A stretch of 24,524 bases of DNA from Halalkalibacterium halodurans (GTDB taxonomy: Bacteria > Bacillota > Bacilli > Bacillales > Bacillaceae_D). The stretch is from the NCBI RefSeq assembly GCF_004376175.1, contig NZ_SNUY01000064.1, forward strand, positions 1-24,524, written 5' to 3'. The position numbers were made by a program, and so were the translations under genes. Positions 829 through 11,447 of this stretch are shown piece after piece. Numbering within the stretch: the first letter of the stretch is position 1; the number at the start of each line of letters is the position of its first letter. The notes beneath the pieces were generated by a model that saw nothing but the letters and a program-made list of their open reading frames with translations, did no database searches and had not been told where the DNA came from.

Positions 829-2490
829 TTATGAGCCATCGAAAATGCCTGCTTGCCAGAGACGGATACTTAAATCAAGTAAAAACACATCATCTGGATT
901 GTTAAGTGAGCAACCGGTGAGAGATTCTATTTTCCTAAGTCGATAGAGTAACGACTGTCGGTGCAGGTTTAACTGTCTTGCGGTTTGACTCACATTACTT
1001 TTATTACGATGGTAGGTTTGAAACGTGTTCACGAGATCAATTTTCCGGTCAACTGAATAAACGAGAAGAGAATGAAGGAGACTATCGGTCATCTCACGAA
1101 GCTCTTGATTGTCTATTAAACTGAAAAGAACTCGATCGATCCTTGTATCGGCATACAGACTTTGGCACCCTGGTCCCCGTTGTTTACGGCCAACGGTTAG
1201 GGCCTTTCTCGCTTCCTCAAAACTTTCATGAAACTGTTTGTAGCCGGAGGTCTTGCTAATTCCCCAAGAAAAAAACAAGTGGGGAAAGAGCAAATTCATT
1301 CGTTGCTGAAAGCTTTGAATGTAAGTGTAAGCCGTCTCCGTACTACGGTCTTGAACAACCTCTAAAAATACAATCAGATACTCTTTCGCATAGGTAGCCA
1401 TCACTTGCAGGTGTAAACTTTTGGCTACATCGTATGCTTCCTCTTCTAGACAACGAGTCACCCCTTGTAACCAATGATCGAATGTCCCAATTTGTTCTCG
1501 GTCTTGTTGATAGAGCTGTGAAATGTTTTCTGGCATCGCCGTTAAGCAGAGATAAGGTAAATGGACTTGATAGCCAAGAGATTTTGCTCTCGAGAGGGCG
1601 GTATCCCAGGAGCTTACGTCTCCTTTCGCTAAGCTCCAAACGAAATCCCCTTGCAGACGCCATTCCGTTTCTTTGGCAGCGTGTTCATGAAGAAAGTGAA
1701 GAGCAACCGCCGTTGTGACATGTTCAAAAAGTGCCATCTGCTGTTCTAATGTATGCTCCTCTGAGGCTGTGCCAATGAGTAAATAACCTTGAATTTCGCC
1801 AGCAGAACGAATGACTAACTGTAAGGCAGCAGACTCGTCATCATGGAGCCATTTTGATGAACCGGATGAGGCATGGACCGATGGTTGGTAAGCGATGACC
1901 TCGTGCGAAAAGGAGGAGTGCCAAATACGTTCTAGTTGATCACTATTCTCGCTTTTTCCTCGAATGACGCCCCGTCGGTCTAGCAGTAAGATCGGTGCGT
2001 CGAATACGTGTGATACATGCTCGGCAATTTGATGAAAGGTGGTACCATTGAGAATCATTTCCAATAGCTGTTTCCTTAAGCTTTCTGCTTGCTCAATTTC
2101 TTTTTGCTTCCGTTGCTCCATCTGTAATAACACACTTTGAATCAAATCGGCAAACCGAAGCTCCCATGGGATTTCGAGCAAAATGAGCCCATGAGTACTT
2201 GCGTAGTGAAGTACACGATCTGGGATATGCTTGACAAATCGCCCCATGGCAATGGCGAGTGCTGCAGCATTGGAAGCAGCAATATCGTGGACGAATTGAA
2301 GAAAACGCTCCTCATCTTCCCCACAGCCGATCCCTGTCGTTAAAACAAGCTCGTTTTCCCTGACGAAGTTTTCGACAGGTGTTTCGATGACAGAGACCCA
2401 CTCGACTGGCTGAGTTTGGAGAGAGGCTTCTCCTGTTTGCACGACCGCATCACCCATTAGCTCTACTACGTCAGAAACGGTCAAATTCAT
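829..2490 (-). CDS. PucR/CdaR-family transcriptional regulator
   Basis: The N-terminus resembles a PurC-like PucR domain (ENELVLTTGIG..., LLEIPWELRFADL). The C-terminus looks like a PucR-type HTH (NVSQTARQLNLHRQSLLYRLRKIE). I moved the start to ATG 2490 (MNLTVSDV) because GGAGGTGG sits 6 nt upstream; the track start at 2532 has no SD. Confidence 0.85.
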   Translation of the reverse strand: MNLTVSDVVELMGDAVVQTGEASLQTQPVEWVSVIETPVENFVRENELVLTTGIGCGEDEERFLQFVHDIAASNAAALAIAMGRFVKHIPDRVLHYASTHGLILLEIPWELRFADLIQSVLLQMEQRKQKEIEQAESLRKQLLEMILNGTTFHQIAEHVSHVFDAPILLLDRRGVIRGKSENSDQLERIWHSSFSHEVIAYQPSVHASSGSSKWLHDDESAALQLVIRSAGEIQGYLLIGTASEEHTLEQQMALFEHVTTAVALHFLHEHAAKETEWRLQGDFVWSLAKGDVSSWDTALSRAKSLGYQVHLPYLCLTAMPENISQLYQQDREQIGTFDHWLQGVTRCLEEEAYDVAKSLHLQVMATYAKEYLIVFLEVVQDRSTETAYTYIQSFQQRMNLLFPHLFFSWGISKTSGYKQFHESFEEARKALTVGRKQRGPGCQSLYADTRIDRVLFSLIDNQELREMTDSLLHSLLVYSVDRKIDLVNTFQTYHRNKSNVSQTARQLNLHRQSLLYRLRKIESLTGCSLNNPDDVFLLDLSIRLWQAGIFDGS

Positions 2491-2676
2491 AACAGACCAC
2501 CTCCAGTTCATCCCTTTGGTTTCATTGTACAAAGAGGCAAGCCCATACTACAAGAAAGATCGCAACATTTAGACAATTTGTTCAACAGCCGTTTGAAAAC
2601 TTCTTACACAATGGTGAATGGATTTATTTGTAAAGAGTAATAGAATGGAAGTATCAAACGGTCAGGAGGGATCTAG

Positions 2677-3873
2677 ATGAATCCTCATATGATGATGAAC
2701 GACAAAGCACTTGGAACGAAAGCTGTATGGGCTGGAGAACGATCCTTTTTAGCCCATGGGGCAACACAGGTACCGGTCGTCCATAGCGTATCTTTTGGGT
2801 ATGATGATGTGGATGAATGGTATGAAGTAGCAACAGGTAAAAAAGATGGGCACATTTACGGTCGCAATACAAATCCAACTGTTCAGGCGTTTGAAGAAAA
2901 AGTGCGGGAGCTGGAGTTTGCAGAGGCTGCCACAAGCTTTGCCACGGGTATGGCGGCGATCTCAAATTCGTTATTGACCGTATTAAAGCCAGGAGATCGT
3001 GTCGTCTCGATAAAAGATACGTATGGTGGGACGAATAAAATTTTTTCAGAGTTTTTACCCCGTTTAAAGATAGAAGTGACGCTTTGCGAAACAGGAGATC
3101 ATGAAGCCCTCGAAAGGGAAATCACCAAAGGTTGCACTCTTGTATATTTAGAAACACCAACGAATCCGACAGTTAAAATTACCGATCTGGAACGAATCAC
3201 GTCATTTACTCACGAGCATAATGCGCTCGTGTTTGTTGATAACACCTTTGCGACACCGATCAATCAAAATCCACTGCTTACTGGAGCCGATTTAGTCATT
3301 CATAGCGCAACAAAGTTTCTTGGCGGTCATGCGGATGCTTTAGGCGGTGTTGCTTGCGGAAACAAAGAGCTTGTATCGGCCATTTACCATTACCGAGAAA
3401 TTAATGGCGCAACCCTTGACCCGATGGCAGCTTATTTGCTGTTAAGAGGGATGAAGACGTTAAAGCTCCGCGTTGAAAAGCAGCAAGAAAACGCAATGAA
3501 AGTGGCGAGGTTTCTTACCGAACATGACAAAGTGAGAGCTGTCTACTACCCAGGATTAGAAACCCATCCTCACCATGAGGTTGCCAAGCGACAAATGCGC
3601 GGTTTTGGCGGTATGCTGAGTTTTGCGTTAAAAGGAGAGATGGAAGCTGTGCGGAAATTCCTCCCAGCTTTAACTTACGCTAATCGGGCAGCCAACCTTG
3701 GAGCAGTTGAAACGACGGTCGGCCCTGCTCGAACGACAAGTCATGTAGAGAACACGCCAGAAGAACGGGCAGCACTCGGAATTCCTGAAGGATTGGTCCG
3801 GTATTCAGCTGGAATTGAAGATGCCGTTGATCTTATAGAGGATTTGTCCCAAGCTCTTGACTCGATTACTTAA
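2677..3873 (+). CDS. Cys/Met-metabolism PLP-dependent enzyme (cystathionine gamma-synthase / gamma-lyase family)
   Basis: 398 aa with the PLP-lysine motif HSATKFLGGHAD, YGRNTNPT, and a length and layout typical of the family. SD AGGAGGG precedes the ATG. It is divergent from the PucR gene. Confidence 0.85.
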   Translation: MNPHMMMNDKALGTKAVWAGERSFLAHGATQVPVVHSVSFGYDDVDEWYEVATGKKDGHIYGRNTNPTVQAFEEKVRELEFAEAATSFATGMAAISNSLLTVLKPGDRVVSIKDTYGGTNKIFSEFLPRLKIEVTLCETGDHEALEREITKGCTLVYLETPTNPTVKITDLERITSFTHEHNALVFVDNTFATPINQNPLLTGADLVIHSATKFLGGHADALGGVACGNKELVSAIYHYREINGATLDPMAAYLLLRGMKTLKLRVEKQQENAMKVARFLTEHDKVRAVYYPGLETHPHHEVAKRQMRGFGGMLSFALKGEMEAVRKFLPALTYANRAANLGAVETTVGPARTTSHVENTPEERAALGIPEGLVRYSAGIEDAVDLIEDLSQALDSIT

Positions 3874-3894
3874 TCCGAATGCGAGGTGAACGAA

Positions 3895-4923
3895 ATGGCA
3901 CAAAAAGTTGCTTTAATTGGGTTCGGCGGTGTGGCACAAGGGTTCATTCAAATTTTAAGAGAGCGGGGCGAGGAGCTCCCAGAGCATATACAAGTCGTTT
4001 CGATCACGGATTGGCGACGGGGGGCGGTACACGATCCGAATGGACTTGATTTGGATTTCATTGCGAAAATAATTGAAACCGATGGGACGTTTGAGCATTA
4101 TCCTGAACGGTCTGGCGTCATAAAGGGATGGAATAGCTTTGAAACGATTCAGCAAACGAATGCAGACACCATTGTGGAAGTGACCTTCACCGATGTGTTA
4201 ACCGGACAGCCGGCCATTGATCACTGCAAGGAAGCTCTGCGTCTCGGTAAGCATGTCGTGACGACAAACAAAGGGCCCATCGCTGTTGCCTATCAAGAGT
4301 TAAAGGAGCTTGCCGATGCAAACGGCGTTCAGCTGCTGTATGAAGGAACGGTGATGAGTGGCACCCCGGCCCTAAGGCTACCTGAACATACATTAATTGG
4401 TAACAACATTCAGGAGGTTAAAGGCATTCTGAACGGAACGACCAACTACATTTTAACAGAAATGGAACGAGGAAAAACGTTTGAGCAAGCTTTGCAAGAC
4501 GCACAAACGCTCGGATATGCTGAAGCAGACCCGACGAGCGACGTTGAAGGATACGATGTTCTTTACAAAGTAGTTATCCTCGCAAATGTAATGATGGGCA
4601 TTCCTCTGAAGCCATCAGATGTGGAGCGTGTAGGGATTTCCCACTTGACGCCTCGTGATATAAAGGATGCTCATTCAGCGGGAGAACGGTGGAAGCTTAT
4701 CGGTCGAGTGAAAAAAGAGGGGGAGCGGACGATGGCAACCGTTAGGCCTGAGCGTCTGCCGCTCACCGATCCTCTCGCCAATATTAACGGCGCGATCAAT
4801 GCGATTACGTATGAATGTGACATTTCTGGGCCGATCACTTTGATTGGAGCTGGAGCTGGAGTGAAAGAAACAGGCTTTGCCTTATTAATCGACTTATTGC
4901 ATGTGAACAGATTAGGGGAGTGA
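3895..4923 (+). CDS. homoserine dehydrogenase-family oxidoreductase (no ACT domain)
   Basis: It has an N-terminal Rossmann motif (VALIGFGGVAQG), ILNGTTNYILTEM, and LGYAEADPTSDVEGYDVLYK, which is typical of homoserine dehydrogenase. I placed the start at ATG 3895 because GAGGTG is 6 nt upstream; the track GTG at 3886 lies inside the SD. Confidence 0.8.
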   Translation: MAQKVALIGFGGVAQGFIQILRERGEELPEHIQVVSITDWRRGAVHDPNGLDLDFIAKIIETDGTFEHYPERSGVIKGWNSFETIQQTNADTIVEVTFTDVLTGQPAIDHCKEALRLGKHVVTTNKGPIAVAYQELKELADANGVQLLYEGTVMSGTPALRLPEHTLIGNNIQEVKGILNGTTNYILTEMERGKTFEQALQDAQTLGYAEADPTSDVEGYDVLYKVVILANVMMGIPLKPSDVERVGISHLTPRDIKDAHSAGERWKLIGRVKKEGERTMATVRPERLPLTDPLANINGAINAITYECDISGPITLIGAGAGVKETGFALLIDLLHVNRLGE

Positions 4924-4934
4924 GGTGAGAAGAG

Positions 4935-6383
4935 ATGCATACACAAGTCGTACAAGAGAGAATGCTCATTAGCGATCAATGGCAGCACGGCCAGCAATCA
5001 ATAGAGGTGATAGACCCCGGAACGAATCACGTCATCGCTACTGTTCCAGCGGCAACGGAAGCCGATGCGAAGGCGGCGATCGAAGCGGCAAAAGAAGGAG
5101 CGGAAATAGCACGTCAAATGCCGATCCATGAGCGCGCAGCTATTTTGAAAAGAACAGCAGAAATTGTGACACGGGATCGTGAGCTTTTTGCGCAAACTAT
5201 TGCGAAGGAAGGGAGTAAAACGATCCGTGAAGCAAGAAGCGAAGTAAGACGTTGCATTGAAACGCTCACATTAAGCGGCGAAGAAGCCAAACGATTGCAC
5301 GGTGAAACGATCCCCTTTTCACAAATGCCTGGTCATGAAAGGCGTGTTGGCTACTTTTACCGTTTTCCGATCGGAATCATCGTGGCCATTACGCCGTTTA
5401 ATGATCCACTTAATTTAGTCGCTCATAAAATCGGACCAGCGATTGCAGCTGGCAACAGTTTGATTATTAAACCGTCAAGTTTCACCCCGTTAAGTGCCCT
5501 TCGTCTCGTGAAAGCATTGGAGGAGGCAGGATTACCGAAAAAAATTGTGCAAGTGATCACAGGACACGGATCGGTGATCGGTCCTACCTTGACGAAGCAT
5601 AGAGATGTTCGCTTGATCTCCTTTACAGGTGGCTATGAGACAGGTGAAAAAATTGCCCGCTCGGCTGGTGTCAAAAAGCTTGCAATGGAGCTCGGGTCCA
5701 ATTCGCCGACGATTGTTTTACAAGATGCTGAGCTAATGGAGGCTGTTGCTTCTTGTGTATCCGGTGCGTTTTGTGCCGCAGGGCAAAATTGTATCGGCGT
5801 TCAACGGATCTACGTGGAACAATCGGTATTTAACTCGTTTATCCAATCGTTTGTTGCTCAAACAAAGCAATTACGACTTGGTGATAAACAATTGGAGGAG
5901 ACCGATATAGGGCCGATGATCTCGGAAAAGGAAGCGAAACGAATTGAGCGCTGGGTTGAGGAAGCGAAGGAGGAAGGAGCTCGGGTTCTTACGGGCGGAC
6001 GGCGAACCGGAGCCTACTTCGAGCCAACCGTTTTAACGAATGTAAGCCCAAGTTCCCGATTAGCGAAGGAAGAAGCCTTTGCCCCCATTGTGATCATTGA
6101 GGGTGTCCATTCACTTACAGAAGCAGTAGCCCGCGCGAATGATGTGGATTTTGGCTTACAAGCAGGTTTGTTTACGAACAATTTAACGGCTGCTTTTTCG
6201 GCAATTGAAAAGCTTGAAGTGGGTGGAATCATGGTAAACGATTCGAGTGATGTACGAATTGATGCGATGCCATTTGGTGGAATAAAGAAGTCAGGACTCG
6301 GGAGAGAAGGGGTTCGCTATGCGATCGAGGAAATGACGGAGCAGAAGGTAGTCGCTTTTCATTTGCCCGAACATAAAATATAA
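4935..6383 (+). CDS. NAD(P)+-dependent aldehyde dehydrogenase
   Basis: 482 aa with the ALDH motifs ELGSNSP (Glu site) and AAGQNCIGVQRIYV (catalytic Cys). SD GGGGAGTGAGGTG precedes it, and it is tightly packed after the previous gene. Confidence 0.85.
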   Translation: MHTQVVQERMLISDQWQHGQQSIEVIDPGTNHVIATVPAATEADAKAAIEAAKEGAEIARQMPIHERAAILKRTAEIVTRDRELFAQTIAKEGSKTIREARSEVRRCIETLTLSGEEAKRLHGETIPFSQMPGHERRVGYFYRFPIGIIVAITPFNDPLNLVAHKIGPAIAAGNSLIIKPSSFTPLSALRLVKALEEAGLPKKIVQVITGHGSVIGPTLTKHRDVRLISFTGGYETGEKIARSAGVKKLAMELGSNSPTIVLQDAELMEAVASCVSGAFCAAGQNCIGVQRIYVEQSVFNSFIQSFVAQTKQLRLGDKQLEETDIGPMISEKEAKRIERWVEEAKEEGARVLTGGRRTGAYFEPTVLTNVSPSSRLAKEEAFAPIVIIEGVHSLTEAVARANDVDFGLQAGLFTNNLTAAFSAIEKLEVGGIMVNDSSDVRIDAMPFGGIKKSGLGREGVRYAIEEMTEQKVVAFHLPEHKI

Positions 6384-6467
6384 GTAAAACGATGATATGG
6401 CCGTCTAAAGATGACGACAAGTCACGCTTCTTAAGTAAAGATTAGGAAAGAAAGAGGGGTGGAGTCC

Positions 6468-7688
6468 GTGTTTTCGTTAATGGAATACCGCTATCGCTTG
6501 AATGAAACGAAAAAACGGATGATGGATGAAGGGATTGATGTCCTTCTCGTTTCAAATCCATCAAATATGTATTATTTAAGCGGCTATTCCGCTTGGAGTT
6601 TTTATGTCCATCAGCTTCTTGTCGTGACGCTTGACGATCCTCAGCCCCTTTGGATCGGACGGGAGATGGATGCTTCTAGTGTAGTCAAGACGACGTGGCT
6701 AGATGAGCAACAAGTCATTCCGTATCCAGACCATTATGTTCAATCGGAAACACGGCATCCGATGGATTTCGTCACAAATATATTAAAGGAAATTGGTCAA
6801 GGAAACCGAACGATCGGTGTTGAAATGGATGCCCATTATTTTACTGGGCTCTGCTATCAACGGCTTCAGCAAGGGTTGACAAACGGGACGTTTAAAAATG
6901 CAACAACGCTTATCAATTGGGTCCGACTCATAAAATCCGATCAAGAAATCCAGGTGATGCGAAAGGCGGCAAAAATTGCAGAAAACGCTATGAAGGCAGC
7001 TTACGATACGGTAAATGTAGGCGTGCGTGAGTGTGATGTGGCTGCGGCCATCAGTCACGCGCAAATTAAAGGAACAGCTGAGTTTGGCGGGGATTATCCA
7101 TCGATTGTTCCGATGCTGCCGACGGGTGAAAATACGTCATGTCCCCATCTAACTTGGACAGATCGGACGTACCAAGAAGGGGATTATTTAACTGTCGAAA
7201 TCGCAGGGTGCTATAAACGATACCATGTTCCGATCGCTCGGACCGTCTCTCTCGGGGTCGCACCTGAGCATGTAAAGGAGCTAGCAAAAGTGGTTATTGA
7301 AGGCATACACGAAACGTTACAAATGATTAGACCTGGAGTGGCTGCGGAAGAGGTTGCTGCTACATGGAGTCAATCCATCAGCAAGCATGGGTTTGAAAAA
7401 AACTCTCGTCTTGGTTATTCGATCGGCCTAAGCTTTCCACCCGATTGGGGCGAGCATACCGTAAGTTTGCGCCAAGGGGACCGAACGTTACTAAAACCGA
7501 ATATGACGTTTCATTTAATGCCAGGTATTTGGTATGAGGACTACGGAGTTGAAATTACAGAGAGCATCCGAATAACCGATGATGGGGTGGAGTTGTTGAC
7601 GAATGTTTCTCGAGAGATTTTTGAAAAGCCCCCTTCTCCTCCGTTGTGGGTCGATGGTAATTGCGCAATCAAACGAGATGTTGACTAG
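6468..7688 (+). CDS. M24-family hydrolase with creatinase-type N-domain (creatinase / ectoine hydrolase DoeA-like / Xaa-Pro peptidase)
   Basis: It has a creatinase_N-like N-terminus (IDVLLVSNPSNMYYLSGY) and a pita-bread M24 C-domain. The start is ambiguous between GTG 6459, GTG 6468 and ATG 6480. I chose 6468 from its spacing to GAGGGG at 6454-6459. Confidence 0.8.
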   Translation: MFSLMEYRYRLNETKKRMMDEGIDVLLVSNPSNMYYLSGYSAWSFYVHQLLVVTLDDPQPLWIGREMDASSVVKTTWLDEQQVIPYPDHYVQSETRHPMDFVTNILKEIGQGNRTIGVEMDAHYFTGLCYQRLQQGLTNGTFKNATTLINWVRLIKSDQEIQVMRKAAKIAENAMKAAYDTVNVGVRECDVAAAISHAQIKGTAEFGGDYPSIVPMLPTGENTSCPHLTWTDRTYQEGDYLTVEIAGCYKRYHVPIARTVSLGVAPEHVKELAKVVIEGIHETLQMIRPGVAAEEVAATWSQSISKHGFEKNSRLGYSIGLSFPPDWGEHTVSLRQGDRTLLKPNMTFHLMPGIWYEDYGVEITESIRITDDGVELLTNVSREIFEKPPSPPLWVDGNCAIKRDVD

Positions 7689-7833
7689 CCGTAGCAATCG
7701 CTGCGGTTTTCCTATAGTGTATAGGAAAATCGTTCGGTTCTCGTTTTTTTAGGTTTTCGAAAGGTGCCTCTCTTGCGTTATCGTGTTAAAATATAGGGAA
7801 AAGACATCCGTGTATGGGAAGAGGAATGATGGA

Positions 7834-9207
7834 ATGACTCAAATAAAAGAAAGGGCATTAAGTACTCTTTGTTACTTGACCTGTGTGTTCTACCTCGTTC
7901 ACCTATTTTTCCCCTCCGTTTGGCTTCAGATGACATATGGAATGTTAGCTGCCATTTTGTTTTTTTACGCATTTCCGCTTCTCTCACTTGTGAGCAAGAT
8001 TGTTGTCGTTGCTCTTATAGGGATAGGCGGTTTTTGTTTTTGGATAGAGGGGGCGAGCGGAAGTACGCTTGTTTTCAGCTTCGGGCAAAATCTAAACATT
8101 ATCTCTATGTTTTTATTTATCCCATTTATTAGCACTTTTCTGTCTTCTGTTGGCTACATCGACTCGATGAAGCATTGGGTGCAAAAACAAGAGCAAAAGA
8201 GGAGGCTTCGGCCCGATCATACGGCGTTTTGGTTGACATCAATCGTAGGCTTGCTTCTTAATTTTGGCTCGCTTGCAATCGTAAAACGGATCATTGAAGG
8301 TAGTTTCTCTTCGTTCCGTGAACAGCGGTTAATGCTCGTGATTTTACGTGGATTTGGCTCATGTCTACTCTGGTCACCATTTATGGTAAACATCGGGTTA
8401 ATATTAACGATTTTTGACCTTTCATGGTATCAGATTGGCGGAATTGGCTTATTAATGGCTTTGATTTATATCTTTTTATTTTGGCTCTTTTACCCAGCTA
8501 TTCAATTTGATACTGACCCTGTCATTAAATATCATCCAGTCGATAGGAGGAAAGAAGAGGGTGAGACAACGATTAAGCCGTTTGTCGCGTTTTCCGTCTT
8601 GCTGATCGCTAGCTGCTTTACGTTCGATATGCTCTTTAATGTGAACATGGTCACGATTGTCACGATTTTAGCTGTGCTGTTCCCATTTTTATGGGCAGTG
8701 GTGATGAAACAAGTACATACGTTTTTTCAATCTGTAATAGAACAACTATTTACGGCTTTTACAAGGTTAAAGCAAGAGTGGGCAATCTTTGTTAGCGCCG
8801 GCTTCTTTGCCGTCGCCCTTTCAGAAACTGCCTTCGGTACGTTTGCATCCGAATGGCTATACCGGTTGGCAAACGGGTCTGTTTTCATCGTGAGCGGACT
8901 TATTATCTTATTCGCTGTTATTCTTGCACAAGTAGGGATCCATCCGGTAATAGTCCTAACAGGGATCGGCTCGTCCATTTCGCCGGAAGCCTTCGGAATT
9001 AGTTCGGCGTATTTGGCGCTTGTTTTAATCGTTAGTTGGACGCTATCTACCCAACTCTCGCCTTTTTCAGGGCAAGTTCTCTTATCGGCCCATTTGGTAA
9101 AAAGACCTGCGCACATTCTTATTCGCCGAAATATTGGATTTATTTTCACTCAATGGGTAGTCCTAACGAGTGTACTCTATGGCTTACATGCTATGAACTG
9201 GCTGTAA
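7834..9207 (+). CDS. polytopic integral membrane protein, putative transporter (family not recognised)
   Basis: There are ten or more hydrophobic segments throughout, with a Gly/Ser/Pro-rich re-entrant-like motif (GIHPVIVLTGIGSSISPEAFG). The start is set at ATG 7834, with GAGG 9 nt upstream; the track start at 7783 has no SD. Confidence 0.65.
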   Translation: MTQIKERALSTLCYLTCVFYLVHLFFPSVWLQMTYGMLAAILFFYAFPLLSLVSKIVVVALIGIGGFCFWIEGASGSTLVFSFGQNLNIISMFLFIPFISTFLSSVGYIDSMKHWVQKQEQKRRLRPDHTAFWLTSIVGLLLNFGSLAIVKRIIEGSFSSFREQRLMLVILRGFGSCLLWSPFMVNIGLILTIFDLSWYQIGGIGLLMALIYIFLFWLFYPAIQFDTDPVIKYHPVDRRKEEGETTIKPFVAFSVLLIASCFTFDMLFNVNMVTIVTILAVLFPFLWAVVMKQVHTFFQSVIEQLFTAFTRLKQEWAIFVSAGFFAVALSETAFGTFASEWLYRLANGSVFIVSGLIILFAVILAQVGIHPVIVLTGIGSSISPEAFGISSAYLALVLIVSWTLSTQLSPFSGQVLLSAHLVKRPAHILIRRNIGFIFTQWVVLTSVLYGLHAMNWL

Positions 9208-9234: not shown

Positions 9235-10155
9235 ATGAATCGCTGGCTTACTTATTTTCTTGTTTTTTTCGTTATGGTGTTATGGGGATTAAATGTGGTG
9301 ATGTTAAAACTACTCGTCACATCGTTCCCACCCGTTACGATGACCGCGCTCCGCATTTTTGTTGCCGGCTTTGTTGTTCTGCTCGTCTTACTTCTTTTAA
9401 AAACATTCCGGCAGCTGACGGCGACGGAGTGGAAATATGTCATATTGGCAGCTATCTTCGGTGTTTTAGGACATCATTTCTTTTTATCGATCGGGTTAAC
9501 GATGACGTCTGCATCCAATGCTGTTTTAATTTTGGCACTGCTGCCACTTACGACTTCGCTTTTGGCTATCCTTTTATTAGGTGACATGTTGACACGCTGG
9601 AGGGGTTTCGGAATTTTCCTTGGACTTACCGGTGTTTGTACAATTGTTCTTTTTGGAGAAGGGGGACTGGCAGGAATTCGAACGGGGGATGGCGTGATTT
9701 TCTTAGCGATGATGATTCAAGCCCTCAGCTTTGTTTACATAAAAAAAGCAACAGATACGCTGGATGCGAAGCAAGTGACAGGAATGATGCTTCTGATCGG
9801 CTCATTGCTATTATTTGTGACAAGTCTTATCATTGAGCCAAATGGTCTTGCCTCGATGGGAGATAAAGCACTGTGGATTTGGTGGGTTTTTGCCATTTCC
9901 GCCGTGTTTGCGACGGGTCTTGGGCACATTATTTATAATCAAGCGATTCATCAGCTAGGTACAGGTGAAACGGCGATTTTTAACAATTTGGTCCCGTTTT
10001 TTGGCCTTTTGTTTTCTGCGCTTTTTTTAGGCGAAGTGATTGCCCTTGCTCAAATTGCAGGCTTGCTTTTTATCGTTGCAGGGGTCATCCTTGGTACTGG
10101 ACATGTAGACGCTTGGATGCAGAAGCGTAAACGTCGCTTCGATCAAGTAGGATAA
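9235..10155 (+). CDS. EamA/DMT-superfamily transporter
   Basis: 306 aa, about 10 TM segments in two EamA-like repeats, with a basic C-terminal tail. A strong SD (AAAGGAGAGGGAG) precedes the ATG. Confidence 0.8.
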   Translation: MNRWLTYFLVFFVMVLWGLNVVMLKLLVTSFPPVTMTALRIFVAGFVVLLVLLLLKTFRQLTATEWKYVILAAIFGVLGHHFFLSIGLTMTSASNAVLILALLPLTTSLLAILLLGDMLTRWRGFGIFLGLTGVCTIVLFGEGGLAGIRTGDGVIFLAMMIQALSFVYIKKATDTLDAKQVTGMMLLIGSLLLFVTSLIIEPNGLASMGDKALWIWWVFAISAVFATGLGHIIYNQAIHQLGTGETAIFNNLVPFFGLLFSALFLGEVIALAQIAGLLFIVAGVILGTGHVDAWMQKRKRRFDQVG

Positions 10156-10202: not shown

Positions 10203-11090
10203 TTAGCTAACAAACATATTGAACTGTGGGTTGATCGCTAGCTCTAATTGCCGCTGTTCTTCAGCCGTTAGCGGAACGAGGGGAAGGCGTACATGCCCAA
10301 CAGGAAGCCCTTTTAGTTCAAGAGCAGCTTTCACTGCAGTTGGGTTGGGTGTCATAAATAAAGTTTTCATGAGCGGTAGTAGTTTCCGATGGATCGCTGC
10401 TGCCCGCTCTACTTGTCCTGACAAAAATAATTGCACCATTTCTTGCATTTCATTTCCGATGATATGCGAAGCAACAGAGACGACTCCTGTCCCGCCGATC
10501 GATAAGAGCGGTAATGTCAATGAATCATCCCCACTGTAGACGCTAAAGTCTGCAGGAGAATGTTCAATAATTTCAGCAATCTGATCAAGATTGCCGCTTG
10601 CTTCTTTAATCGAAACAATATTTCTTAGTTCAGCAAGGCGTAGCGTCGTTTCCGCATCCAAGTTGACACCGCTTCTTCCGGGAATGTTGTAAAGCATGAT
10701 TGGTAAGGAAGTGGATTCGGAAATGGCTTTAAAGTGTTGAAATAAGCCTTCCTGAGATGGCTTGTTGTAGTAAGGGGTCACGAGCATGATACCGTCCACA
10801 CCTAAATCTTCTACTTTTTTACTCAGCTCAATCGAAGCCCTCGTATTGTTGGAGCCTGTTCCTGCGATGACGGGAACTCGGCCACCTGCGGCTTCCACTA
10901 CGGTGTGGAAAAGGGCCATTTTTTCATCTGTCGTTAACGTGGGCGATTCGCCAGTGGTTCCACCAACGACAAGGGCATCGCTCCCATTGGCAATTAATTC
11001 ATTTACAAGTTGACAGGTCGCTTCTAGGTTCACTTGGTCCTGTTCGTTGAACGGTGTGACCATCGCTGTAACAATCCGTCCGATATTCAT
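10203..11090 (-). CDS. dapA: 4-hydroxy-tetrahydrodipicolinate synthase
   Basis: Motifs present are TAMVTPF, VVGGTTGESPTL, LYNIPGRSG and the active-site Lys context VSIKEASG. The start is set at ATG 11090 (MNIGR), 9 nt after AGAGGAGG; the track start at 11099 abuts the SD. Confidence 0.9.
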   Translation of the reverse strand: MNIGRIVTAMVTPFNEQDQVNLEATCQLVNELIANGSDALVVGGTTGESPTLTTDEKMALFHTVVEAAGGRVPVIAGTGSNNTRASIELSKKVEDLGVDGIMLVTPYYNKPSQEGLFQHFKAISESTSLPIMLYNIPGRSGVNLDAETTLRLAELRNIVSIKEASGNLDQIAEIIEHSPADFSVYSGDDSLTLPLLSIGGTGVVSVASHIIGNEMQEMVQLFLSGQVERAAAIHRKLLPLMKTLFMTPNPTAVKAALELKGLPVGHVRLPLVPLTAEEQRQLELAINPQFNMFVS

Positions 11091-11198
11091 TCCGTGCATC
11101 CTCCTCTATTCATGGTTGAAATTGAAGTGCGTGATCGGTTGTCTCATTGGTGAATAGAGCTATACGACCTCATCGCAAAGAAAAAGCTATACGACATC

Positions 11199-11230: not shown

Positions 11231-11289
11231 ATGGTATGTGTTGATTAACAACCATTCCGATGCGTGAGATAGCCCTCCATATAGCAACA

Positions 11290-11447
11290 TCCGCTATATG
11301 ACAGTTCTGTATTTATTTAATACAGAACCAGCCTTCAGAACATGAGATTCTTCCAGCTTCGGCAAATTCCCCTTTCCACAATTCTCAACGGATCTCATTC
11401 TCCTCCAATTGTGTACTCTTGGTTTTTGCACCTCTATCCTCACTTCA
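11290..11447 (-). promoter_or_regulatory. lysine riboswitch (L-box) aptamer in the dapA leader
   Basis: The minus strand reads ...GAAGTGAGGATAGAGGTGCAAAAACCAAGAGTA...TTGGAGGAG...GAAAGGGGAATTTGCCGAAGCTGG...AACTGTCAT. This is collinear with my memory of the B. subtilis lysC L-box blocks (GATAGAGGTGCGAACTTCAAGAGTA / TTGGAGA / GAAAGGGGA..GCCGAAG / CTGTCA). Confidence 0.8.

Follow-up and report, generated by a model that had tools for sequence, protein, structure and literature searches.

Here we describe a gene cluster in a 24,524-nucleotide stretch of the Halalkalibacterium halodurans contig NZ_SNUY01000064.1 (assembly GCF_004376175.1; hereafter the window, to the whole of which all coordinates refer). 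The cluster consists of four consecutive enzyme genes that lie divergent from a gene for a PucR-family regulator and encode a pyridoxal phosphate (PLP)-dependent enzyme of the Cys/Met family, a homoserine dehydrogenase (HSD) without an ACT domain, an aldehyde dehydrogenase (ALDH) and an M24 hydrolase related to the ectoine hydrolases DoeA and EutD. Judging by gene content and by comparison with related loci, this cluster is a new, deacetylase-less variant of a recently noticed putative ectoine catabolic cluster that is widespread in salt- and alkali-loving relatives of Bacillus. The operon likely handles diaminobutyrate derived from ectoine, and we consider it rather probable that the whole is an inducible catabolic operon for ectoine (possibly close tetrahydropyrimidines) of a 'Gram-positive type', present here in a reduced form. 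Ectoine is among the most abundant microbial osmoprotectants and is also an industrial product; Proteobacteria are, to our knowledge, the only group in which the pathway of its degradation has been elucidated.

The connection to ectoine comes from the M24 protein and from the genes that surround its relatives. In a phmmer search, the protein matches the solved EutD structures 6twk and 6twj over its full length (residues 5-390, E = 5e-114), and it shares 46% identity, again along its whole length, with a Klebsiella DoeA whose score clears the TIGR02993 model for ectoine hydrolase DoeA (EC 3.5.4.44). An earlier interpretation of the window, made from its letters alone (hereafter, the sequence-only reading), had called for the placement of this protein relative to DoeA/EutD, creatinases and prolidases. 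The outcome is that DoeA/EutD is the nearest group, with 384 bits for EutD compared with 117 bits for prolidase and 56 bits for creatinase, so that the latter two roles were rejected. We propose that the protein is an ectoine ring-opening hydrolase, as its homology would predict. Furthermore, fuller related clusters also hold eutB, a cyclodeaminase gene (eutC) and genes for EhuB-like binding proteins with their ABC partners, TRAP systems or ProP. On Klebsiella IncF plasmids, ehuABCD is divergent from a gene for a MocR regulator, doeA and doeB, which are followed, in the doeD/doeC position, by a gene of the orthologous group PRK08249, the same group to which the PLP enzyme of the window belongs. 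Among the substrates considered in the sequence-only reading, M24 homology and cluster context strongly favour a cyclic amidine osmolyte, namely ectoine, over a guanidino-oxy compound.

The PLP enzyme scores 743.7 bits with the PRK08249 model (NF006097), the cut-off of which is 600. Scores with this model are bimodal across an even sample of 251 Bacilli genomes, either at least 673 bits or at most 423 bits, indicating that the enzyme belongs to a distinct orthologous group. The protein is 60% identical to the product of the Klebsiella plasmid gene that follows doeA-doeB, which itself scores 651 bits against the same cut-off. The names borne by PRK08249 members, 'cystathionine gamma-synthase' included, all derive from automatic annotation. 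The enzyme keeps the Cys/Met-family residues Y61, R63, Y116, D188, S210, K213 and R375, which would bind the alpha-amino acid and drive gamma-chemistry, and it has the family-specific residues W18, Y42, W48, H59, N64, T115, R240, E241, Y253 and E358. The sequence-only reading had assigned it to the family of canavanine gamma-lyase; this holds at the level of the Cys/Met family but not of the orthologous group, as the enzyme is only 36% identical to the product of the PLP gene beside the HSD and ALDH genes in the locus of Rhizobium leguminosarum WSM2304. A canavanine gamma-lyase of this strain has been reported (PMC9533460); the WSM2304 record is unannotated, and we infer that its PLP gene is the one that encodes WP_012555980.1.

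The PLP and M24 genes are persistently linked. The M24 protein has orthologues (54-72% identity) in 23 of 24 further genomes from its own family and in 4 of the order's 16 other families. The pucR, PLP and M24 genes occur together in all 16 related loci first examined, and the HSD and ALDH genes also in 15 of these. PRK08249 is represented at or above its cut-off in 21 genomes of the 251-genome sample, and an EutD-like M24 gene in 22; all 21 PRK08249-positive genomes carry the two genes within about 2.5 kb on one contig, and just one genome has the M24 gene without PRK08249. Recurrence of the same genes in the 16 first loci and dozens more implies that the arrangement is not due to chance, and the gene-neighbourhood conservation that the sequence-only reading had asked for is thus borne out. 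In a census of loci, the combination of M24, PLP, M20 amidohydrolase, HSD and ALDH genes was the commonest (35 loci), followed by the arrangement without M20, as here (7 loci, the window being additional), M24 and PLP only (5 loci) and M24, PLP and M20 (3 loci). The HSD gene is accompanied by that for ALDH in 44 of 44 loci, and is never found without the PLP gene in loci whose contig permits the check. Several genera, among them Halalkalibacter, Alkalihalophilus, Alteribacillus and Salsuginibacillus, have the cluster in its present arrangement flanked by kapB and dapA.

The two remaining enzymes point to homoserine and aspartate semialdehyde as intermediates. The HSD scores 446 bits with PRK06270 (cut-off 373), is free of an ACT domain in a Pfam search, and is 45% identical to R. 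leguminosarum WP_011654697.1 as against 33-35% to the two other hom gene products of its own genome, the open frames of which (417-439 amino acids) are long enough to accommodate an ACT domain. WP_011654697.1 (pRL80071) belongs to the AnHSD family and adjoins the homoserine-catabolism cluster of an R. leguminosarum plasmid; an Arthrobacter enzyme of this family oxidises homoserine with NAD+, and the reverse activity was not seen. The ALDH, in which the catalytic motifs ELGSNSP and GQNC are present, is in turn 51% identical to the ALDH that neighbours WP_011654697.1 (for the pair in R. leguminosarum BIHB 1217, HSD 45% and ALDH 51%). In WSM2304, a row of genes for a Cys/Met-family PLP enzyme (36%), HSD (46%), ALDH (49%) and DapA matches the rhizobial canavanine loci. 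The likeness of HSD and ALDH (45-51%) to rhizobial catabolic pairs supports a conversion of homoserine via aspartate semialdehyde to aspartate, and we propose that the HSD is catabolic, producing aspartate semialdehyde from homoserine, and that the ALDH would oxidise the semialdehyde to aspartate. DoeC had been suggested as the precedent for the ALDH; orthology to DoeC/Ssd found no support, the SSADH-like model yielding only 359 bits against a cut-off of 646. Its best curated match, to lactaldehyde dehydrogenase, is also under the cut-off.

Combined, these assignments suggest the following scheme. The EutD/DoeA-like M24 hydrolase would open the ectoine ring to give N-acetyl-L-2,4-diaminobutyrate, from which removal of the acetyl group would yield L-2,4-diaminobutyrate. 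In most relatives, this second step would fall to the cluster-borne M20 amidohydrolase; here, either a housekeeping M20 paralogue might serve or the M24 enzyme might yield the N-gamma-acetyl isomer, from which the PLP enzyme would expel acetamide. At the third and key step, the PRK08249 enzyme would act in place of the DoeD transaminase, eliminating the gamma substituent and letting water add to a vinylglycine intermediate to form L-homoserine. This step is modelled on canavanine gamma-lyase, in the reaction of which water adds to the vinylglycine-ketimine intermediate (PMC9533460). Finally, as homology to the rhizobial enzymes would have it, the ACT-less HSD would oxidise homoserine to aspartate semialdehyde, and the ALDH would oxidise the latter to aspartate; the route from canavanine through homoserine and aspartate semialdehyde to aspartate has been reconstituted in vitro (PMC9533460). 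The hybrid route outlined in the sequence-only reading, with hydrolysis by the M24 enzyme, PLP-dependent gamma-chemistry to homoserine and further conversion to aspartate, is favoured by the comparative evidence. For its central element, gamma-elimination/hydration of L-2,4-diaminobutyrate or its acetylated form to homoserine by the PLP enzyme, we see about an even chance; a literature search found no paper that describes such an activity. With more reserve, we tentatively suggest that PRK08249 as a whole represents a new activity, a gamma-eliminating, homoserine-forming L-2,4-diaminobutyrate ammonia-lyase/hydratase which, together with the catabolic HSD and ALDH, might provide a second, transaminase-free route from ectoine to aspartate in many Bacillota, and which would be mobile on Klebsiella plasmids.

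Several observations weigh against this scheme. Gamma-elimination would require an amine or amide to depart, and both are poor leaving groups. The clusters that consist of M24 and PLP genes only (the 5 loci mentioned above) are equally compatible with a PLP enzyme that makes 2-oxobutyrate. The M24 protein scores 486.4 bits with TIGR02993, below the cut-off of 613, and its homologues in the Bacilli sample score 417-540 bits, with none at the cut-off; hence, this is a divergent clade, the substrate of which could be a relative of ectoine instead of ectoine itself. The window encodes no recognised ectoine importer, and ehuB and ProP-type genes are absent from the genome. Nor does the genome hold an orthologue of the cluster-type M20 gene (the best paralogues are 36-38% identical) or, in a tblastn search with the Klebsiella DoeB, any DoeB/EutE deacetylase of the AstE/AspA family, so that the acetyl-removal step is unaccounted for. 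Two generic M20 paralogues, at around 60724-61863 of contig C2 and 73501-74592 of contig C24 of the genome, are candidates for it. In favour of ectoine, on the other hand, the presence of ectC in the genome marks the organism as an ectoine maker itself, and ectC tends to accompany the cluster in the order: of its 16 other families, 3 have both, 11 have neither, 1 has only the cluster and 1 only ectC (these being kin, the comparison is no formal test). Such co-occurrence may, however, merely reflect halophily. Finally, the authors of the study that listed the related Bacillales clusters note that no Gram-positive bacterium had until then been shown to use ectoine, and they call their own assignments of clusters tentative (PMC13188858).

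The missing deacetylase can be followed across the related loci. In most of these, an M20 amidohydrolase gene sits between the PLP and HSD genes, and its product has DoeB2, an acetyl-diaminobutyrate deacetylase of the M20 type, as third-best curated match (246 bits, cut-off 550); a literature search on DoeB2 found no papers. The sequence-only reading did not foresee this gene. Its statement that a DoeB-type deacetylase is lacking holds for the entire genome, and its statement on the DoeD-type transaminase holds for the cluster, in which Pfam detected no class-III aminotransferase of the DoeD/Atf type (the rest of the genome was not searched). On the tree of PLP proteins, the presence or absence of M20 switches at least 10 times, and the window protein nests among the M20-bearing clusters of the Halalkalibacter type, which indicates that the absence of M20 here is a lineage-specific loss, one of several independent ones. 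A displaced M20 orthologue was not found in five other M20-less genomes either (best match at most 40%), and an M20 remnant between the PLP and HSD genes is impossible in a spacer of 12-21 nucleotides. Recurrent loss of M20, together with the existence of M24/PLP-only pairs, implies that a cluster-borne deacylase is dispensable. In the deacetylase-less operons, the PLP enzyme or the M24 hydrolase may have shifted to the direct use of N-gamma-acetyl-diaminobutyrate, with acetamide as the leaving group.

The alternative that survives best, which we nevertheless regard as unlikely, retains ectoine as the source and takes the PLP enzyme for a plain gamma-lyase that converts (N-gamma-acetyl-)diaminobutyrate to 2-oxobutyrate and ammonia, with the HSD and ALDH as an add-on for a side product or for free homoserine. 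This interpretation is favoured by the minimal clusters (M24 and PLP, with or without M20; 8 loci) and by the Klebsiella operon, which is devoid of HSD and ALDH genes, and an Alkalibacterium cluster, in which PLP, M20 and M24 genes are followed by those for RidA and acetate kinase, fits a sequence from an enamine via 2-oxobutyrate to propionate; furthermore, canavanine gamma-lyase makes small amounts of 2-oxobutanoate (PMC9533460). However, the Alkalibacterium PLP gene is not a member of PRK08249 (364 bits against the cut-off of 600), and in strains without the HSD/ALDH pair, housekeeping enzymes can take care of homoserine oxidation or assimilation. The pair itself occurs in 44 loci, in none of which, as far as could be assessed, is the PLP gene missing; it lies directly downstream of that gene, here with spacers of 11-12 nucleotides.

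A different substrate for the same enzymes is also rather improbable. The candidates are 5-hydroxyectoine only, free N-acetyl-diaminobutyrate or diaminobutyrate, homoectoine, and an undescribed cyclic amidine or N-acyl amino acid. Such a substrate would be in line with the position of the M24 protein and every sampled Bacilli homologue below the DoeA equivalog cut-off, with the lack of a known ectoine transporter in the window, and with the occurrence of M24 homologues of about 50% identity in gut and digester Clostridia, for which ectoine is no obvious nutrient. The similarity of the M24 protein to canonical DoeA and to the EutD structures argues for ectoine nonetheless, as do the EhuB-like, TRAP, ProP, eutB and eutC genes of related clusters and the occurrence of the PLP partner with canonical doeA, doeB and ehuABCD. 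Absence of eutB and eutC from both the window and the genome argues specifically against a hydroxyectoine-only role.

We consider it quite improbable that the PLP enzyme is an aminotransferase ('atf') that would turn diaminobutyrate into aspartate semialdehyde, from which the ALDH would make aspartate and the HSD would divert some to homoserine. The Cys/Met family shares fold-type I with aminotransferases; however, we know of no omega-transaminase in this family, and the residues that bind the alpha-carboxylate and alpha-amino groups and support gamma-chemistry (R375, Y116, K213 and Y61/R63) are all retained. The HSD, by similarity, falls in an oxidation-biased catabolic family, and a biosynthetic branch is hard to justify in a catabolic operon when two hom genes are present. 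Also in favour of a transaminase is the location of the PLP gene, which occupies the atf/doeD position in cluster diagrams and is apparently labelled atf in PMC13188858.

Catabolism of canavanine or another O-substituted homoserine, as in Pseudomonas and Rhizobiales, can be given very little credence. The PLP-HSD-ALDH triad and a neighbouring dapA are shared with the WSM2304 locus and the rhizobial loci (PMC9533460), but the PLP enzyme, at 36% identity, falls in another orthologous group, one that goes with DoeA-like genes; the breakdown of canavanine has no place for an EutD-like hydrolase; Pfam and NCBIfam scans of the window revealed no guanidine exporter; and dapA is convergent, with a lysine riboswitch of its own. 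The automatic annotations 'cystathionine gamma-synthase' and 'homoserine dehydrogenase' would suggest a standard methionine/threonine biosynthetic unit, which the sequence-only reading had named as a refuting outcome. Such a unit can be dismissed, because the genome carries, outside the cluster, two hom genes and five Cys/Met-family PLP genes that cover the housekeeping and methionine pathways, and because the unit is associated with M24, ALDH and pucR genes and occurs in only 21 of the 251 Bacilli genomes.

Returning to the proposed ectoine-to-aspartate operon, all five genes described in the sequence-only reading, the tightly packed four and the divergent pucR, were recovered with the same positions and families by open reading frame (ORF) analysis and by Pfam and NCBIfam searches (Table 1). 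The spacers within the four-gene unit are 12 nucleotides (PLP/HSD), 11 nucleotides (HSD/ALDH) and 75 nucleotides (ALDH/M24), and no terminator-like sites were found between the four enzyme genes. A strong hairpin followed by a U-run, UCUCGUUUUUUU, lies directly 3' of the M24 stop codon and is probably the terminator of the four-gene operon, perhaps a leaky one. The true start of the HSD gene is likely ATG 3895 and that of the M24 gene GTG 6468. The pucR gene likely starts at ATG 2490, given that relatives of the regulator align from residue 15 and that GGAGGTG precedes this codon. The M24 protein extends by a tail of about 19 residues (window 7628-7688) past the point, after ...IFEK, at which EutD and most relatives end. 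The only riboswitch found by an Rfam search of the cluster is the lysine riboswitch of dapA.

Table 1. The cluster and its flanking features in the window
Feature	Position	Strand	Supporting data
PucR-family regulator	829-2532	-	Pfam PucR N-domain, GGDEF_2-like, HTH_30; TTG at 2532 opens the ORF
Divergent control region between pucR and PLP gene	2491-2676	no strand	Conserved sites and -10-like box
Cys/Met-family PLP enzyme	2677-3873	+	Cys_Met_Meta_PP 441 bits; PRK08249 743.7 bits
ACT-less homoserine dehydrogenase (HSD)	3886-4923	+	NAD_binding_3 and Homoserine_dh; PRK06270 446 bits
Aldehyde dehydrogenase (ALDH)	4935-6383	+	Aldedh 543 bits
DoeA/EutD-like M24 hydrolase	6459-7688	+	Creatinase_N and Peptidase_M24; TIGR02993 486 bits
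Hairpin and U-run	7690-7751	+	-22.8 kcal/mol, z = -4.2 vs shuffles
Polytopic membrane protein, unnamed Bacillota family	7783-9207	+	No Pfam or NCBIfam match
EamA (DMT-superfamily) transporter	9235-10155	+	EamA 142 bits, two repeats
dapA, convergent to the cluster	10203-11099	-	
Lysine riboswitch of dapA	11262-11444	-	Rfam RF00168, 129 bits

Orthologues of the PucR protein (37-53% identity) adjoin the cluster in almost all related loci. The intergenic region between pucR and the PLP gene contains two conserved sites with an ACAWWTTGT-like core, at about 2570-2586 and 2602-2622, and a -10-like TAGAAT (2641-2646) downstream of both. The 10-mers of both sites, allowing up to 2 mismatches, recur in register in 16-21 of the 22 orthologous pucR/PLP intergenic regions. 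These sites upstream of the PLP gene are candidates for a PucR operator with an activator-dependent promoter, and PucR probably activates the operon via them.

The two transporter-like genes that had been noticed directly downstream of the M24 gene are indeed present, and the membrane proteins that they encode probably move a substrate or product. The first of these, with a probable true start at ATG 7834, has as its nearest language-model neighbours unnamed Bacillota clusters and then the DcuC, DctM, CitMHS and DUF401 families. Four other loci, including those of Alteribacillus and Salsuginibacillus, have a homologue of 35-41% identity after the cluster, and the protein is a possible substrate transporter and candidate member of a new ectoine-related transporter family. 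A 395-amino-acid membrane ORF that follows the Alkalibacterium cluster was considered as a relative and proved to be unrelated. An EamA orthologue (49-58% identity) comes after the M24 gene in nearly every cluster with this arrangement and is usually the last gene. The neighbouring dapA recalls the WSM2304 PLP-HSD-ALDH locus, which also ends with this gene; DapA consumes aspartate semialdehyde, and this neighbourhood may or may not be a coincidence.

Examination of the related loci also revealed a variety of architectures. A congener of the window strain carries the genes in a different order (pucR-M24-gap-PLP-M20-HSD-ALDH), with proteins 55-72% identical to those of the window, the cluster of which is closer to those of Halalkalibacter (PLP about 80%, M24 about 72%) than to that of the congener; in addition, the window protein sits on a long terminal branch of the PLP tree (0.4, compared with a median of 0.14). 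Together, the difference from the congener and the long branch suggest that two ancient types of cluster were lost differentially or that a transfer took place. The locus of Alteribacillus iranensis (L045, 5052-13774) is the sole cluster seen with M20, ALDH and M24 genes and without those for PLP enzyme and HSD; the joint absence of the latter two fits their sequential action. In Alkalibacterium putridalgicola (L054, 5679-15150) and five other loci of lactic-acid and clostridial bacteria, pucR is divergent from genes for an MGL-like PLP enzyme, outside PRK08249 as noted above, M20 and an EutD-like M24 protein; the Alkalibacterium cluster, which continues with acetate kinase and RidA genes, suggests an anaerobic variant ending in 2-oxobutyrate and propionate. 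An IclR-regulated locus of Anaerotignum propionicum (L064, 8422-20703) encompasses genes for an EutD-like M24 protein, a TRAP transporter, two M20 proteins, an EutB-like PALP enzyme and EamA, and apparently represents a third type of architecture, a clostridial one, built around this hydrolase. Finally, a plasmid of Chondrinema litorale (Bacteroidota; L114, 9001-10176) carries a PRK08249-type gene (61% identity) without ectoine genes nearby; thus, the link between PRK08249 and DoeA is strong but not universal outside Bacilli.

If the scheme is correct, many halophilic and alkaliphilic Bacillaceae, ectoine makers included, recycle ectoine by PLP-dependent removal of the side-chain nitrogen to give homoserine, not by transamination. 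A function would thereby be assigned to PRK08249, a large orphan family that is currently mis-annotated as cystathionine gamma-synthase or homocysteine desulfhydrase, and a first effector system to a non-purine PucR regulator in such a context. The prediction would also be relevant to the engineering of ectoine producer strains, in which a degradation knockout helps. With four enzymes and one regulator, the deacetylase-less version of the cluster is the simplest natural test bed for these possibilities.

Comparison with known systems highlights the composite nature of the cluster. With DoeABCD of Halomonas elongata and EutD-EutE-Atf-Ssd of Ruegeria pomeroyi, it shares a homologous first enzyme, the expected end product aspartate and an ALDH as the last enzyme. 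In contrast to these canonical systems, the window genome has no DoeB/EutE, a Cys/Met-family PLP enzyme and an HSD stand in for DoeD/Atf in the cluster, the ALDH is not SSADH-like, and the regulator is PucR instead of EnuR/AsnC. With the canavanine catabolism loci of Pseudomonas canavaninivorans and Rhizobiales (PMC9533460) and the homoserine region of R. leguminosarum, the cluster has in common a Cys/Met-family PLP enzyme, an NAD-type ACT-less HSD and an ALDH in this order, with a likeness that is one of sequence (HSD 45-46%, ALDH 49-51%). The window differs in that its PLP enzyme belongs to another orthologous group (36%), that genes for a guanidine exporter and tRNA editing are missing, that an ectoine-hydrolase homologue is added, and that the expected leaving group is ammonia or acetamide as opposed to hydroxyguanidine. 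In the Klebsiella IncF operon (e.g., NZ_CP013713), a gene of the same PLP orthologous group comes immediately after those for ectoine hydrolase and deacetylase, but the latter two are the canonical DoeA and DoeB, an Ehu importer is encoded, the regulator is of the MocR type, and HSD and ALDH are lacking. This ehuABCD-MocR-doeA-doeB-PRK08249 module (NZ_CP013713, 30321-49499), devoid of doeC and doeD, is carried by many Klebsiella IncFIB/IncHI1B plasmids, including those of clinical isolates.

A cluster akin to that of the window has been listed, by bioinformatics only, as putative ectoine/hydroxyectoine catabolism in Bacillales in the form 'pucR-eutBCD-atf / abgB-thrA-adh (/ eutD-mfs)' (PMC13188858, 2026); PucR is noted there, and no role is given to abgB-thrA-adh. 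Of this gene set, pucR, eutD-like, PLP, thrA and adh are present in the window, whereas neither the window nor the genome has abgB, eutB or eutC. A cluster of this type on the plasmid NZ_CP035096 of Priestia megaterium shares with the window PucR, the EutD-like M24 protein, the PRK08249 enzyme (72%), the thrA-type HSD (57%) and the ALDH; from its position in the plasmid cluster, we infer that the PRK08249 gene is the 'atf' of PMC13188858. Compared with clusters of this type, that of the window dispenses with abgB (the M20 deacylase), eutB, eutC and a ProP, Ehu or TRAP transporter, and it is distinguished by an M24 gene in the last position, a divergent pucR, and an ending formed by the genes for an unnamed membrane protein and EamA.

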